Below are positions 4,951 to 41,081 of a stretch of 46,829 bases of DNA, one piece after another. This stretch comes from Bacteroidota bacterium (GTDB lineage: Bacteria; Bacteroidota; Bacteroidia; Chitinophagales; S012-47). The position numbers were made by a program, and so were the translations under genes. Position 1 is the first letter of the stretch. Every line of letters begins with the position of its first letter. Location of the stretch: the NCBI GenBank assembly GCA_024276745.1, contig JAJRWN010000093.1, forward strand, positions 1-46,829. Direction: 5' to 3'. Under the pieces are notes generated by a model, which saw nothing but the letters and a program-made list of their open reading frames with translations, ran no database searches and was not told where the DNA came from.

Positions 4951-5940
4951 ATGACAAACAGAAAAATAGACCTGGAAACAGGTCTGATAAAAAGTACCTT
5001 AATCGGGATAAAACATAATTTAGCAATAGCTTTTGATACAAAGCCTGCAGAAGCCGGAAAACTTCTGCAAAGTAATTTGATAGATGAAAACCTTGGCTTA
5101 TTGAATATCGGCCCTACTGAAAAGGCTATCAATGCTTTAGATTTAATAATACATCCTCAATTAGTAATATTACTTTTTACTTTACAAGGAAAAGTCAAAA
5201 TTCAGTTTCACGGAATAGATGCACCTGTTTTTTTGGAAAGGGGGAACAGTATTTTTATTTCTCATCCATACGCACCACTCAATGCCAAAATGAATATTAG
5301 TTGTCAAACTGAGGCAATAGTATTATTGACAACTATCGAACGAATGCACCATTTCTTTAATGCAAATCTTGACATGAGCACGATAACCCGGGAAGAACTA
5401 AGCCGGTATTACGATCCTAAAAAATTGTATATGTTAAAATCTATTCCGGGAAGTCTTAGTATTCCATTACACCAGATAATACAATATAATCTTGATGTTC
5501 ATTTTAAAAAAATGTATTTAAACGGAAAGATTCTGGAAATTTTTTCAATCTATTTTAGTCATGCCGCCATGGATGATGAAGCCGAATTAGACTGTCCTTT
5601 TCTGGATAATCCTGATGATATAAAATGCATCCGGAAAGCAAAGCAAATTTTATTGGATAATATGACTGATCCTCCAACTATAGCACAATTGGCAAAACAA
5701 TCAGGTATTAATGAATTTAAACTTAAAAACGGATTCAAAGACATTTATGGCAACACAATTTACGCTTATCTGAACGAGCACAGAATGCAACAAGCAATAT
5801 TAATGCTTGAACAAAAAAATCACACTATAAATGATATTGCATATTCTATCGGTTATTCAAAACCAAGTAATTTTATTGCTTCTTTTAAGAAGAAATATGG
5901 TATTACCCCAAAAAAGTATGAACTTGAACTGCGAGATTAG
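4951..5940 (+). CDS. AraC-family transcriptional regulator (PchR-like), divergent from the hmuY-like operon
   Basis: C-terminal double HTH: PPTIAQLAKQSGINEFKLKNGFKDIYG...INDIAYSIGYSKPSNFIASFKKKYGITPK. Confidence 0.93.
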   Translation: MTNRKIDLETGLIKSTLIGIKHNLAIAFDTKPAEAGKLLQSNLIDENLGLLNIGPTEKAINALDLIIHPQLVILLFTLQGKVKIQFHGIDAPVFLERGNSIFISHPYAPLNAKMNISCQTEAIVLLTTIERMHHFFNANLDMSTITREELSRYYDPKKLYMLKSIPGSLSIPLHQIIQYNLDVHFKKMYLNGKILEIFSIYFSHAAMDDEAELDCPFLDNPDDIKCIRKAKQILLDNMTDPPTIAQLAKQSGINEFKLKNGFKDIYGNTIYAYLNEHRMQQAILMLEQKNHTINDIAYSIGYSKPSNFIASFKKKYGITPKKYELELRD

Positions 5941-5984
5941 TATAATTGAACGCATAAAAAATTGGTAGTCTGCTCCCGGGCATT

Positions 5985-5992
5985 TATTTTTG
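5985..5992 (+). promoter_or_regulatory. -7 element (TATTTTTG) upstream of the pseudo-tRNA/tRNA-Val unit
   Basis: TAnnTTTG match about 30 nt before the degenerate tRNA copy; the AT-rich context makes chance matches possible. Confidence 0.45.
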
Positions 5993-6022
5993 TCCTGCTT
6001 TTTAATTAGCTATTAATAATAA

Positions 6023-6076
6023 GGGTGCTTAGCGCTTTGGTGTAGAGCATCCCGATTACATCGGGAGGGTCGTAGG
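6023..6076 (+). pseudogene. Degenerate truncated tRNA-Val copy with the anticodon arm replaced by TCCCGAT-TAC-ATCGGGA
   Basis: Shares GGGTGCTTAGC, TAGAGCAT, TAC and GGGTCGTAGG with the intact tRNA 80 nt downstream; lacks the T-loop and 3' acceptor strand. Confidence 0.85.
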
Positions 6077-6102
6077 GGCTATTTGATATTTGACTTATTT
6101 TA

Positions 6103-6180
6103 GGGTGCTTAGCTCAGTTGGTTTAGAGCATCTGCCTTACAAGCAGGGGGTCGTAGGTTCGAATCCTACAGTGCCCACCA
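6103..6180 (+). tRNA. tRNA-Val(TAC)
   Basis: Acceptor GGGTGCT/AGTGCCC, anticodon arm TCTGC-CT TAC AA-GCAGG, GTTCGAATC T-loop, encoded CCA. Confidence 0.97.
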
Positions 6181-6188
6181 CTTATAAT

Positions 6189-6214
6189 AAAAACCTCGCT
6201 TTTGCGAGGTTTTT
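6189..6214 (+). terminator. Intrinsic terminator after tRNA-Val (potentially bidirectional)
   Basis: AAAAACCTCGC-TTTT-GCGAGGTTTTT. Confidence 0.85.
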
Positions 6215-6445
6215 CTCGTTATGGCTTTTGGGTAGTATAAAGTATTAAAATCACAATATTCAAATTAACTCAATATTCAAAGAATGGGCCGTGTATTTGA
6301 CAAAATGCTTTAGATTTTGCGAATGTAAAATTTTGAGATTAGCGTTTTCTTTTGGAATAATCCGGACCTTAGAATTTCCGCTTTTATATTTGTTCCTTAA
6401 GTCATTAAGGAATGCACCGGGTTTTACCATTGAAAAAAATGGAGC

Positions 6446-7012
6446 TCAACAAAGTGTCAATGTATTGGTATCAGTATGTTCAAACACTTTGCCGTAAATA
6501 TCAAGCATTGTCGTTTCAGCATAAAATAATCGACCATTCCCTACTTCAACTTGATGCTTAAAAGAATTTGTTCGTGCTTTTTGCTGCATAAACGGAGATT
6601 GAAGGATACCCCAGCTCTGATTATCAATACTTGCAGATACTTTAATAATTAACTGACCTTCGGTATTTTTCTGCTCCCGGTAGTTTGCTCCCGCAAGCAC
6701 ACAAACGGCACGAGGGATAACAATACTTTGCATAATGATACTTTCTTTCGCATCCCAAAGCCAATAGCCCGTTTGATCATGAAAGATTTGTTGATCAGAT
6801 TTTCGTTGTACAATTTGCCGGTAATGTACTACCGACAATATTTGAGATTCAGCATTGGTAACATCACCGGCTGCGGTAAATGTGATGGTTTCGAAATAAG
6901 GATTTTCTTCAGAACCATCAGGTTCCGGAGCTACATCAAGTCCTTTATCTCCTGTCCAGGTACCAATTAGCGAAGCCAAGGGACCGTAATCAATTTTTGT
7001 TTGTTCTTGCAT
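6446..7012 (-). CDS. Nitrobindin/THAP4-like (DUF1794, FABP-like) heme-binding beta-barrel protein
   Basis: N-terminal GPLASLIGTWTG, YFETITF, HDQTGYWLW and C-terminal FEHTDTNTL. Confidence 0.8.
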   Translation of the reverse strand: MQEQTKIDYGPLASLIGTWTGDKGLDVAPEPDGSEENPYFETITFTAAGDVTNAESQILSVVHYRQIVQRKSDQQIFHDQTGYWLWDAKESIIMQSIVIPRAVCVLAGANYREQKNTEGQLIIKVSASIDNQSWGILQSPFMQQKARTNSFKHQVEVGNGRLFYAETTMLDIYGKVFEHTDTNTLTLC

Positions 7013-7177
7013 ATGCTTTTTACTAGATTTTATAAAATCCTAAAATACAAAAACAGGATGATTTTAATCACTGAAAATATTCCGCTATGCAAGCAGAAGT
7101 GAATCACTTAAACCGGCTTGGCGGAAGGAAGAAAAAAAATACCCGCAACTATCGAGTCATTACCTTCAAAGCTTCGT

Positions 7178-8302
7178 TTAGCGGTAAGTTCTGAAAAAAA
7201 AGAATCGGTCATTTAGGAGCAGGTTTACCCCATACGTGAAATCCAATCGCTGAGAAGGAATATCGAAATAGGCTTCGAAATAAATTTTAGCCTTGAGATA
7301 TGAGCTTAAATGTTTTAAAAGTTCGATTCGTCCGGTAATCAATTTCCGGTTGGGAATAGTAAAGGATGAATCAAGTTCAGAAATACTTTCTAATAAAAAT
7401 TCACCGTAAGGTGCAATAAACTGATGCCCTTGCTGATAAGCAATTTTCAGATTAATCCACTGAGCAGAAGCATTTACTCCCGCATACCACGCATAGCCTT
7501 TTTCAAAAGGCAATGCATTGTTTTGGCCAGGAGGAGGCATGGATAGCGCTTGATATATCAGATATTGACCATCTACACCAATATCAAATGCTTTTGAAGG
7601 ATTTGGTTTAAATGAAAACCCCAGGCCTGTCATACCATTAAACACGGTCAGTACTCCATCAGGTGAACGATCAATTTGTCCTCCTTTATGGGTAATAAGC
7701 AATTGCAATGGAATATGAATCGAACTGTGTTTCCCTAAATCATGTTCCCACCGGCTGCTGCTTCCGGCAATAATTTCTTCTTGAAAAGGATCTCCTTTTT
7801 GAATAAACCTTCTCCACTCCAACCAATTATCTGATCGAAAATGAGCTATATCCAATTCGCTTTGCAAGCCATATTCTACCGGATGCTGATAAAACCAATC
7901 TCTGCGATACAATGATTCTGATAAATCATGGAGTTTATCATTATTCAAATGCCCCATGCGCAGAAGAAATCCCGGTTTTGCTTCATACGTAATCGAAAAT
8001 AAAGGCAAGAATTCGCTAATACCTTTGCTACCATCATACATCAGCAGATGAAAACCTGCATCAATCGTAGTTTTTGGATCAGGTTTATATTCAATTTGAG
8101 GTTGTATAAAAAATCCAATACCTGTCCATCCTTCTGATAAGGGTGAGAAATATTCATTGTTTTTTAGAAAATTATTAGCTTTTACTAGCAAATAAACAGG
8201 TCTTTTTAGTGTATCTTCATTCAGCTTGGAAGCATAAAACTCCTGTGCATAAACAGATAAGCTGCATATACAAAACACCAACAGTATTTTTATACCTTTC
8301 AT
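7178..8302 (-). CDS. Conserved hypothetical outer-membrane beta-barrel protein (start probably MKGIK at 8302)
   Basis: SPI signal (SLSVYA-Q), amphipathic aromatic-rich strands, NNEYF and HKGGQID segments seen in Bacteroidota hypotheticals. Confidence 0.6.
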   Translation of the reverse strand: MKGIKILLVFCICSLSVYAQEFYASKLNEDTLKRPVYLLVKANNFLKNNEYFSPLSEGWTGIGFFIQPQIEYKPDPKTTIDAGFHLLMYDGSKGISEFLPLFSITYEAKPGFLLRMGHLNNDKLHDLSESLYRRDWFYQHPVEYGLQSELDIAHFRSDNWLEWRRFIQKGDPFQEEIIAGSSSRWEHDLGKHSSIHIPLQLLITHKGGQIDRSPDGVLTVFNGMTGLGFSFKPNPSKAFDIGVDGQYLIYQALSMPPPGQNNALPFEKGYAWYAGVNASAQWINLKIAYQQGHQFIAPYGEFLLESISELDSSFTIPNRKLITGRIELLKHLSSYLKAKIYFEAYFDIPSQRLDFTYGVNLLLNDRFFFFRTYR

Positions 8303-8398
8303 AATCTCTGTTCGCAAAAATACTAATAGCATTCATTAATTAATTGTTGAGCAATGATTGACGGGGCTGTATTATATTTGCATACAAATAAAAGTTGT

Positions 8399-32117: not shown

Positions 32118-32131
32118 AATCCATAACAAGG

Positions 32132-32205
32132 TGGAGCTAGTGGGAGTCGAACCCACGACCTCTTGACTGCCAGTCAAGCACTCTAGCCAACTGAGCTATA
32201 GCCCC
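32132..32205 (-). tRNA. tRNA-Ala(GGC)
   Basis: Reverse complement GGGGCTATAGCTCAGTTGGCTAGAGTG CTTGA-CT GGC AG-TCAAG AGGTCGTGGGTTCGACTCCCACTAGCTCCA; G3:U70 Ala identity pair; followed by CCT, so CCA is not fully encoded. Confidence 0.97.
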
Positions 32206-32215
32206 ATACATTTCA

Positions 32216-32272
32216 GGGCTATGGCGAAGTGCCTGTCCCGGTGAAAACATATCATCGGGAAGCTATAGCCCC
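32216..32272 (-). repeat. tRNA-Ala 5'-end duplicate fused to a TCCCGATGA...TCACCGGGA palindrome (nested hairpin)
   Basis: GGGGCTATAGCT (12 nt identical to the tRNA-Ala 5' end), then a 9-bp inverted repeat with 1 mismatch, closed by GCCATAGCCC. Confidence 0.8.
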
Positions 32273-32284
32273 AAAAACAGGGAG

Positions 32285-32292
32285 CAAAGATA
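32285..32292 (-). promoter_or_regulatory. -7 element (TATCTTTG) for the tRNA-Ala unit
   Basis: Plus-strand CAAAGATA about 13 nt upstream of the duplicated 5' end. Confidence 0.7.
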
Positions 32293-39101: not shown

Positions 39102-41081
39102 ATGCAGCAAAACCCTTCAGAAGGCAAATTATTGTGGACACCGGATTCAAAATGGATTGAGGCTACAAACCTTCATCAATATTGCGAATGGTTGAAACAT
39201 AAACACAAATTAAGTTTTGCCAATTACGATGAACTTTGGCAATGGTCGATAGATTTTCCTGAAAAATTTTGGGAAAGTATTTGGCAATATTTTGAGATTA
39301 AATCATACCGGCCTTATAACCATGTAGTAAGCAGCCAAGAAATGCCCGGTATTCATTGGTTTGAAGGGGCCACATTGAACTATGCAGAACATATTTTCAG
39401 AAAGAAATCTGATGAACGGCCGGCATTTTTGTATGAATCGGAAACGCATCCGCTCGAAGCCATTAGCTGGGATGAGTTGGAAGAAAAAACGGCAGCATTA
39501 GCATCGTGGTTGATGGCTGCCGGTATCCGTAAAGGTGATCGCATTGCAGCTTTTCTACCCAATACTCCTTATGCCGCTATCGGTTTTTTTGCTGCTGCCA
39601 GTATCGGAGCCATTTGGTCGAGCTGTTCGCCCGATTTTGGTTTTGATAGTGTGATAGACCGTTTCAAACAAATTGAACCCACCGTATTGCTGACCGTTGA
39701 CGGCTATACCTACAATGGAAAGGCTTTTGATAAAACAGAAGAAGTCAGGCGTATTTGCAAAGCATTAAACAGCCTGCAAGAAGTTATCGGAATCCCTTAT
39801 CTTTCCGATAAACCTGAATTTAATATTTCCGGATTAAGCCTATGGGAAGAGGTGATGAACAGTGCCCACGAACCCTTACAATTTGAAGCACTTCCTTTTG
39901 ATCATCCGATATGGATTTTATATTCATCGGGTACTACCGGCATTCCAAAAGCGATTACGCATAGCCACGGAGGGGTTTTAATTGAGCATTTGAAATTAAT
40001 GACATTACAAAATGATTGTCGAGAAGGAGATCGTTTTTTCTGGTACAGCACCACCGGATGGATGATGTGGAATATTGTGATGGCATCATTACTTAGCGGA
40101 AGCACCGGAATTTTGTATGACGGCAGTTTGGCCTATCCCGATATCAATAAACTATGGGCATTGGCCGAGCAGACAAAAATGAACTCTATGGGTATCAGTG
40201 CCGGATTTGTGACGGCCTGCATGAAACAAGGGGCCAATCCCGGGCAGTATGATTTATCGGCTCTCAGAATGATCGGATCAACGGGATCGCCTCTGGCTCC
40301 CGAAGGGTTCGACTGGCTATACGATAAAGTAAAAAAAGATCTTTGGTTGGTATCGCTCAGTGGTGGTACCGATGTATGCAGTGCCTTTGTGGGAGGTGCT
40401 CCTACCCTGCCCGTTTACAGCGGAGAAATTCAATGCCGTGCTTTGGGTTGTAAAATTGAAGCTTATGATTCGATGGGTGAACCCGTAATCAATGAAGTAG
40501 GTGAACTGGTCCTTTCGGCTCCTATGCCTTCCATGCCGGTTTTTTTCTGGAACGACCCGGGCAATGAACGCTACCTCAACAGCTATTTCGATATGTTTCC
40601 CGGCATTTGGCGTCATGGCGACTGGGTGAAAATAACACCTCGGGGAAGTTTGATTATTTATGGGCGCAGCGATGCAACGTTGAACCGGCAAGGCATTCGT
40701 ATCGGAAGCAGCGAAATATACCGGGCCTTGGATGATCTGGAAGAAATAAAAGACAGCCTAATCATTGGGATTGAATTGCCCGGAGGGGACTATTATATGC
40801 CACTTTTTGTCATGCTCAGTAAAAAGCAAAAGCTTGATGAACAACTCAAAAAAAAGATAAAAACAAGGATCCGGCAAAAATTCAGCCCAAGACATATACC
40901 GGATGAAATTATGGAGATACCCGATATACCCTATACGTTAAGCGGGAAAAAAATGGAAACACCGGTAAAACGTTTTCTGCAGGGTATGCCACTCGAAAAA
41001 GCTGTGAATCTGGGCTCATTGCGCAATCCGGATGCTTTTAATTATTTTGAAGAAATCCGGAATAAATTATTAGAAAAATAA
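39102..41081 (+). CDS. Acetoacetate-CoA ligase
   Basis: YSSGTTGIPK, WSSCSPDFG, TGWMMWN, SGGTD, GRSDATLN and SGKK motifs. Confidence 0.93.
   Translation: MQQNPSEGKLLWTPDSKWIEATNLHQYCEWLKHKHKLSFANYDELWQWSIDFPEKFWESIWQYFEIKSYRPYNHVVSSQEMPGIHWFEGATLNYAEHIFRKKSDERPAFLYESETHPLEAISWDELEEKTAALASWLMAAGIRKGDRIAAFLPNTPYAAIGFFAAASIGAIWSSCSPDFGFDSVIDRFKQIEPTVLLTVDGYTYNGKAFDKTEEVRRICKALNSLQEVIGIPYLSDKPEFNISGLSLWEEVMNSAHEPLQFEALPFDHPIWILYSSGTTGIPKAITHSHGGVLIEHLKLMTLQNDCREGDRFFWYSTTGWMMWNIVMASLLSGSTGILYDGSLAYPDINKLWALAEQTKMNSMGISAGFVTACMKQGANPGQYDLSALRMIGSTGSPLAPEGFDWLYDKVKKDLWLVSLSGGTDVCSAFVGGAPTLPVYSGEIQCRALGCKIEAYDSMGEPVINEVGELVLSAPMPSMPVFFWNDPGNERYLNSYFDMFPGIWRHGDWVKITPRGSLIIYGRSDATLNRQGIRIGSSEIYRALDDLEEIKDSLIIGIELPGGDYYMPLFVMLSKKQKLDEQLKKKIKTRIRQKFSPRHIPDEIMEIPDIPYTLSGKKMETPVKRFLQGMPLEKAVNLGSLRNPDAFNYFEEIRNKLLEK

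Follow-up and report, generated by a model that had tools for sequence, protein, structure and literature searches.

A partial copy of tRNA-Val(UAC), carrying a hairpin in place of its anticodon arm, was found directly upstream of the intact gene in a Bacteroidota genome, and this copy (hereafter, the twin) is probably the ORF-less footprint of a selfish GIY-YIG element that invades tRNA genes. Judged by its letters, the twin is a defunct 5′ copy of the functional tRNA-Val(UAC) gene next to it, with a GC-rich palindromic cassette (core TCCCGA...TCGGGA) standing in for the anticodon stem and closing the anticodon loop. Across Bacteroidota and Ignavibacteriota, the same cassette marks partial tRNA copies that flank a GIY-YIG gene inserted at a tRNA. 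The observations that bear on this reading are the anatomy of the locus, the wide distribution of its parts, a physical link between ORF, tRNA and hairpin, an empty site in a genome of the same genus, and a single locus at which the ORF is intact in some members of a genus and broken or lost in others.

The window, that is, the whole stretch of 46,829 nt that was analysed, is contig C74 of a 2.3-Mb metagenome-assembled genome (MAG) of 164 contigs and 38.6% G+C, labelled G000; G001 and G002 denote a genome of the same genus and one of the same family, respectively. Among named relatives, a Chitinophagales MAG comes closest, with 81% amino-acid identity in one protein. The features around tRNA-Val in the window are as follows.

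5985..5992, + strand: likely −7 element of a promoter, TATTTTTG, ahead of the twin, read by eye, in a block conserved in the alignment with G001
6023..6076, + strand: the twin, a 5′ partial pseudo-tRNA-Val with blocks identical to the gene and no ARAGORN or Rfam call
6050..6066, + strand: hairpin cassette TCCCGAT-TAC-ATCGGGA replacing the anticodon arm, unique in G000; with its flanks, a 23-nt stretch that recurs elsewhere
6077..6102, + strand: spacer, the 3′ part of which aligns with the native leader of G001
6103..6180, + strand: intact tRNA-Val(UAC) with encoded CCA and an ordinary anticodon arm (ARAGORN, tRNA-Val(TAC); Rfam tRNA, 70.3 bits)
6194..6214, + strand: intrinsic terminator CCTCGC-TTTT-GCGAGG with a T run, read by eye; the computed scan lists a shifted version
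6446..7012, − strand: THAP4-like heme-binding domain protein (Pfam)
7178..8332, − strand: 383-aa protein with no Pfam match

The twin was shown to consist of the acceptor 5′ strand, a decayed D arm that is one base short, the hairpin cassette, the variable loop and the 5′ strand of the T stem. Three of its blocks are identical to the gene (6023–6033 to gene positions 1–11, 6043–6051 to 22–30, and 6067–6076 to 46–55), and the homology ends at 6076, gene position 55, leaving the twin without the 3′ half of the T arm and without the acceptor 3′ strand. At 6050–6066, the twin reads TCCCGATTACATCGGGA where the gene reads TCTGCCTTACAAGCAGG, 17 nt each with TAC in register; on the two sides of the swapped arm, TAGAGCA and GGGTCGTAGG remain as flanks. 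The cassette is predicted to fold into a stem of 7 bp with a loop of 3 nt, and the chance of seven complementary pairs is, by arithmetic, 4^-7, or approximately 6e-5. The arm swap, with its equal length, register and kept flanks, was thus found just as the sequence-only reading had described it, whereas the notion of a tRNA-Val "twin" held good only as far as a 5′ copy of the gene: the copy is partial, its D arm has decayed, and neither ARAGORN nor Rfam at E ≤ 10 called it. In other words, the twin lacks the complete cloverleaf by which tRNA finders recognise a functional tRNA. The anticodon arm of the gene itself (6103–6180) belongs to the type seen in relatives that lack the element. In the acceptor stem of the gene (6103–6109/6168–6174), GGGTGCT pairs with AGTGCCC, including adjacent G-T pairs at 4–69 and 5–68, positions that are Watson–Crick in G001.

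The promoter consensus of Bacteroidota is TAnnTTTG, a type that the sigma-70 promoter scan does not cover; that scan is not applicable to this phylum. The box at 5985–5992 would likely place the twin and tRNA-Val in one transcript, and the twin is probably co-transcribed with the gene as part of its leader. In the predicted minimum free energy fold of the precursor 6010–6185, the 3′ acceptor strand of the gene pairs with the 5′ acceptor strand of the twin and not with that of the gene itself; the z-score of the precursor fold was only −1.41. At 39859–39869, 11 nt agree with the 3′ end of the tRNA, which is no more than chance would give (approximately 1.5 expected, by arithmetic).

That an assembly or binning artefact made the twin is scarcely credible. 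The fragmented state of the MAG would allow it, as would the outcome of a search with two junction patterns, in which no other metagenome contig was found to carry the exact twin. Against it, a separately assembled Logan contig of 1737 nt (run X1) matches 5700–6136 with one letter different and spans the twin, the spacer and 34 nt of tRNA-Val, although run X1 is probably the sample of origin and the contig is thus not independent of G000. In addition, the same architecture occurs in isolate genomes, e.g., those of Algoriphagus namhaensis and Christiangramia bathymodioli.

Comparison with the relatives revealed an empty site. G001 has the same promoter, leader, tRNA-Val and terminator with no twin, and relative to it the window carries a leader insertion of approximately 65–75 nt; in G002, a 5′ partial, tRNA-Val and an ORF of the GIY-YIG type lie together. 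In the window, no GIY-YIG remnant was detected near 6180–6450 by tblastn with 11 ORF queries or by HMM search, and the best tblastn matches of the GIY-YIG ORFs (E ≥ 0.05) lay away from tRNA-Val. That the locus holds neither ORF nor remnant counts against the footprint reading. Further downstream, approximately 2.1 kb between the tRNA-Val terminator and an M20 peptidase gene (6215–8350) are missing in G001, where the peptidase gene directly follows the terminator. The ORFs near tRNA-Val gave Pfam matches to an AraC-type HTH, the THAP4-like heme-binding domain and the M20 peptidase, or no match, and none to a recombinase domain.

Related structures lie at further tRNA loci of G000, where an exact-block scan of tRNA flanks was used for pseudo-tRNA pieces, blastn-short being too insensitive (2 matches).

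Window, 32236..32272, − strand: second twin, upstream of tRNA-Ala(GGC); 32272–32261 equal tRNA positions 1–12, and 32260–32236 read TCCCG...CGGGA
Window, 32130..32205, − strand: intact tRNA-Ala(GGC) downstream of the second twin (ARAGORN)
C103:4055–4426: hairpinned 5′ partial joined to the beginning of an intact GIY-YIG ORF, which reads into an intact tRNA-Asp
C79:10690–10896: ORF start directly after tRNA-Leu, at the contig end
C49:10072–10380: two 3′ partials of tRNA-Pro that lack an ORF and carry two types of hairpin
C146:10–158: 18-nt 3′ fragment of tRNA-Gly(CCC), 58 nt downstream of the gene

The hairpin of the second twin has a stem of 5 bp and a loop of 15 nt. The ATAGCCC that follows it can pair with the copied acceptor strand, and a TAnnTTTG-like box lies upstream at 32292–32285. 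The exact cassette motif occurs once in G000, and the relaxed motif TCCCGA-N2-14-TCGGGA occurs four times, against 0.55 in shuffled sequences. All four hairpins lie inside pseudo-tRNA pieces, namely the Val twin, the 5′ partial tRNA-Asp on C103 and the two 3′ partials of tRNA-Pro on C49.

Six stretches of other genomes contain a 29-mer spanning the cassette, and 31 contain the 23-mer, mostly from Bacteroidota; the taxa comprised Cytophagia, Flavobacteriia, Sphingobacteriia, Bacteroidia, Saprospiria-like genomes and Ignavibacteria, together with single MAG contigs of Dehalococcoidales and Bacteriovoracales. An intact same-strand tRNA-Val(TAC) was located within 3 kb in 24 of the 31, while six had no tRNA in view and one had only Val-GAC. 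The cassette resides in partial tRNA copies and not in the called tRNA gene, and the acceptor letters flanking it agree with the local host tRNA, not with each other. In a check for co-conversion, the cassette was identical across classes and its outer flanks were host-specific, while the loops often keep the host anticodon. Cassette-like matches were also seen on contigs labelled Dehalococcoidia, Chloroflexota, Bacteriovoracales, Arenicella, Ectothiorhodospira, Fimbriimonas, Actinomycetes, Paraburkholderia and a Firmicutes-like MAG; the matches on non-Bacteroidota contigs may be transfers, mis-binning or chance.

The usual layout, observed with many tRNA types, was a run of 5′ partials, the tRNA, a terminator, the ORF, a 3′ partial and a further terminator. 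The 5′ partials lie upstream of the gene, often in tandem with a period of approximately 78–182 nt and in arrays of 2 to 4 or more, and the 3′ partials lie downstream of the small ORF. Their ends are concentrated, with 55 of 64 distinct 5′ copies ending at gene positions 50–57 and 49 of 71 distinct 3′ copies starting at positions 15–22. Among 159 cassette sites with a 5-nt inner loop, the loops TTACA (39), TGCAA (18), TTTTA (15) and TTTCA (8) were recorded, and the host anticodon was often kept, as TAC at Val and as TTT of Lys in 11 of the 15 TTTTA sites. Such retention is easier to reconcile with rewriting of the stem in place than with import of a cassette. ARAGORN called a tRNA around the hairpin at 10 of the 159 sites, which was counted against the footprint reading. 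The functional tRNA-Val genes beside elements have the same anticodon arms as those of element-free genomes, and because they keep ordinary arms, an account in which a recoded target confers immunity leaves the escape of the host gene unexplained. In imperfect copies, stem mismatches, which might distinguish selection on RNA from that on DNA, amounted to only 11 variants, with 3 A-C against 2 to 4 G-T. No viral contig with the cassette was found, and no Rfam family besides tRNA was detected at E ≤ 0.01 in eight related loci, apart from two chance-level matches.

Of the 31 stretches, 15 contain a GIY-YIG ORF next to the cassette, as identified by profile match. Its product has 81–88 aa, with PF01541 as the sole Pfam match (E 1e-14 to 9e-20) and no second Pfam domain that could serve as a separate DNA-binding domain. 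The residues Y, Y, G, R, H and E are invariant in 11 ORF sequences, which come from related loci and C103 of G000 and not from the window locus. Judging from profile matches to UPF0213 structures 1zg2 (E 3.7e-13) and 1ywl (5.8e-9) and to SLX1 7cq2 (1.7e-5), the product is a free-standing GIY-YIG protein of the SLX1/UPF0213 type consisting of the catalytic domain only. The 3′ end of the ORF commonly runs into tRNA-derived sequence, where its stop codon lies.

Of 41 relatives, 33 possess the ORF, as do 135 of the 201 Bacteroidota sampled, with up to 22 copies. Its association with tRNA genes was also evident in samples ascertained by protein: an intact same-strand tRNA lay within 400 nt at 18 of 30 loci in one sample, and in the other, a tRNA lay within 260 nt of 52 of 74 ORFs and a perfect hairpin of the TCCCG type near 35 of them. 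The isotypes beside the ORFs were Val, Asp, Ala, Asn, Lys, Pro, Arg, Met, Leu, Glu, Phe and Ser, and the ORFs cluster by isotype across host families, albeit in short, weakly resolved trees. Eleven ORFs are accompanied by other C-rich hairpins, three of which are CCTGCC..GGCAGG, all three in one ORF clade; the hairpins of other lineages comprise TGGCGCC.., TCCGCC.. and CCTGCC... Five ORFs of a well-supported basal clade (L080–L084, L112) adjoin neither tRNA nor hairpin. Tandem arrays of ORF and partial tRNA were found at L240 (G110:C2), with 13 units of 298-nt period and the hairpin TGGCGCC..GGCGCCA, and at L241 (G162:C1), with eight units of about 423 nt after tRNA-Asn. Across genomes, the number of hairpins correlated with those of GIY (rho 0.51) and Y1_Tnp (rho 0.48) genes, kin genomes not being independent. 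A specificity of the hairpin for the nuclease, as read from such genome counts, was not counted as evidence of recognition, the correlation being equally strong for Y1_Tnp.

Presence/absence polymorphism and decaying copies were both observed. Besides the empty site in G001, one locus in six Algoriphagus species carries the ORF intact in four, frameshifted in one and nearly lost in one, and pseudogene copies of the ORF occur at locus L038. Taken together, the association of ORF, tRNA and partial copies, the empty site and the decay series in Algoriphagus bear the hallmarks of a selfish nuclease gene that invades tRNA genes and later degenerates.

These results bear on further proposals of the sequence-only reading. 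Its argument that the swapped stem is not a product of random decay was borne out by the recurrence of the identical cassette beside tRNA-Val genes in many genomes, and the tRNA association for which it proposed a genome-wide search was found for all four relaxed copies. Its REP-like element proved to be a repeat in many Bacteroidota, although G000, with one exact and four relaxed copies, contains no REP family. Likewise, the proposed link of the hairpin with tRNAs and small nuclease genes was found for GIY-YIG but not for HUH nucleases: no hairpin was present in the flanks of nine Y1_Tnp genes in four hairpin-rich genomes, and no Y1_Tnp match was obtained in G000. The retention of TAC turned out to be no rule, TTACA accounting for the minority of loops given above.

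For the origin of such loci by invasion, the following course seems most likely. The nuclease would introduce a break at a tRNA gene or close to it. Repair templated by an element-bearing copy would then insert the ORF, with part of the tRNA duplicated to either side and the cassette being carried along by co-conversion while the outer flanks remained host-specific. The twin would be the remnant left after loss of the ORF, or a repair product that never included it. The cassette would then persist because it kills the pseudo-tRNA and interrupts direct repeats through which the copy or the element might otherwise be lost by recombination, or else because it is the cis site of the structure-specific SLX1-like nuclease itself; both roles are compatible with the data. 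A more specific proposal, possible but on the doubtful side, is that this minimal SLX1-like GIY-YIG nuclease recognises or cuts TCCCG...CGGGA as a cruciform or hairpin, the two forming a REP/RAYT-like pair that lives in tRNA genes, writes stable hairpins in place of arms while the loop is kept, and seeds repeats throughout the phylum.

The hairpin might instead be independent of the nuclease gene, a REP- or MITE-like palindrome that colonises, or is tolerated in, dead DNA such as partial tRNAs, with the GIY-YIG genes merely sharing the neighbourhood and the twin being a local duplication later overwritten. We consider this unlikely. It would account for the abundance and dispersal of the hairpin family, which is a multi-copy palindrome in many relatives (3544 copies in 201 genomes vs. 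550 for a control pattern), and for copies away from tRNAs, which form the apex of longer palindromes (CCCCTCC-hairpin-GGAGGGG) or belong to a repeated element of approximately 200 nt or to satellite-like GTGAAGG/CCCTTTT tracts (seen at L085–L091 of G021, L096–L100 of G028 and L234–L239 of G023). It is also in keeping with the equal correlation with Y1_Tnp, with the ORF-less window locus and with genomes such as G115, which has 245 hairpin copies and no ORF; conversely, G207 has 12 ORFs and no hairpin. However, it leaves unexplained why the hairpin lies within at most a few hundred nucleotides of nearly half of the 74 protein-ascertained ORFs, when the genomes hold only tens of copies, and why it is absent from the Y1_Tnp flanks. 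The confinement of all G000 copies to pseudo-tRNAs and of the CCTGCC-type hairpins to a single ORF clade likewise speaks against it, and a same-length, in-register replacement of a stem is unlike the product of simple insertion.

A selected role of the twin as a co-transcribed tRNA-like RNA, be it a decoy for a tRNA-binding enzyme or nuclease in the manner of a type III antitoxin or a processing signal, appears quite improbable. Its position between the conserved promoter box and tRNA-Val would suit such a role, as would the tandem 5′ partials that elsewhere precede the tRNA, terminator and ORF, and the cognate anticodon often kept in the loops. On the other hand, the nuclease ORF is missing at the window locus, the 3′ half of the T arm and acceptor is absent from the twin, the fold z-score is modest, and the same hairpins are also seen in 3′ partials that follow ORFs and in repeats with no relation to tRNAs; the only PADLOC matches, to PDC-S14 and UzuA (E 2e-5 to 3e-3), were weak and partial. 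The comparison with a close relative, proposed earlier as a check, went against conservation of the twin, and its absence from G001 together with the decayed D arm disfavours a selected mimic or decoy. Even less probable, and indeed very much so, is an att-site scar left by an element with a tyrosine or serine recombinase (phage, ICE or island) integrated in tRNA-Val. Such integration classically yields partial tRNA copies as a by-product, as described in a preprint (10.1101/2022.07.05.498093), and the segment downstream of tRNA-Val that is missing in G001 would be in keeping with it; however, the neighbouring ORFs lack a recombinase domain, the copy is a 5′ part placed 26 nt from the gene and not a 3′ direct repeat across an island, and its arm is rewritten and not identical.

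Returning to the footprint of an invading GIY-YIG element, we compared it with known systems. In I-TevI and the Seg proteins, a separate DNA-binding domain gives site specificity. The proteins of the elements described here differ in that they consist of the catalytic domain alone, of the SLX1/UPF0213 lineage, and the elements differ further in that they reside on bacterial chromosomes and not in phages, are known from sequence alone, and are flanked by partial tRNA copies with hairpin-replaced arms. They resemble T4 SegB in the placement of a GIY-YIG gene among or beside tRNA genes, and for SegB in the T4 tRNA cluster, two reports describe that the tRNA region is inherited preferentially and that the nuclease drives the amplification of segments (PMC2330249, PMC13096335), to which the present arrays of up to 13 units of ORF and pseudo-tRNA may be likened. 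Prokaryotic SLX1-like/UPF0213 proteins are described, in the relevant part of one study, as minimal GIY-YIG domains with no auxiliary domains (PMC1564403); the ORF belongs to the same family by profile (PDB 1zg2, 1ywl), whereas its tRNA-gene neighbourhoods, partial tRNAs and hairpins are no part of that portion of the account. The elements share partial tRNA duplicates with the copies made by integrases at the ends of islands and prophages, as documented in the above preprint, but have no recombinase, a spacing of 26 nt or one small ORF instead of kilobases, both 5′ and 3′ partials, and a rewritten arm.

The likeness to REP/RAYT systems lies in a short GC-rich palindrome present in tens to hundreds of copies per genome, whose number rises with that of a small nuclease gene. 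REP palindromes go with RAYT (HUH) transposases, whereas the adjoining gene here is GIY-YIG and the gene-side copies of the hairpin lie inside tRNA-derived sequence. Small palindromes also spread through non-coding DNA in organelles. In Allomyces, double-hairpin elements occur, as does a mobile endonuclease ORF with a duplicated atp6 end, and mitochondrial tRNA genes of Neurospora are flanked by GC-rich palindromes; the displacement of a duplicated gene end by an endonuclease ORF is common to these cases and to ours. Mobile GC-rich hairpins are further described as GC clusters in yeast (PMC4478555) and as repetitive hairpin-forming elements in sponges (PMC2800124). The present case differs from the organellar hairpins in its bacterial setting and in the in-register replacement of a tRNA arm. 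In some relatives, the layout of repeats, terminator and nuclease gene is comparable to that of ToxIN-like type III toxin-antitoxin systems, from which the elements differ in that the ORF is GIY-YIG and not of a known endoribonuclease toxin family, the PADLOC matches are weak and partial, and the window has no ORF. T4 SegB, att duplications, REP/RAYT and organellar hairpins thus each have one feature in common with the elements, and none has the combination. No description of GIY-YIG genes with hairpin-bearing partial tRNAs in Bacteroidota was found in open-access and bioRxiv full texts.

The copy in the window is itself a relic with no evident function. If the reading is true, however, tRNA genes of Bacteroidota, including those of many cultured genera, would commonly be colonised by a tiny selfish element made up of an 85-aa nuclease gene and hairpin-marked partial tRNAs. 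This would account for a large class of genes annotated as "GIY-YIG nuclease family protein" and for pseudo-tRNA calls in annotations, and would provide a source for an abundant, phylum-wide palindromic repeat. Furthermore, it would give the bacterial SLX1/UPF0213 proteins a biological context and offer a tractable case of site-finding by a nuclease with no DNA-binding domain.
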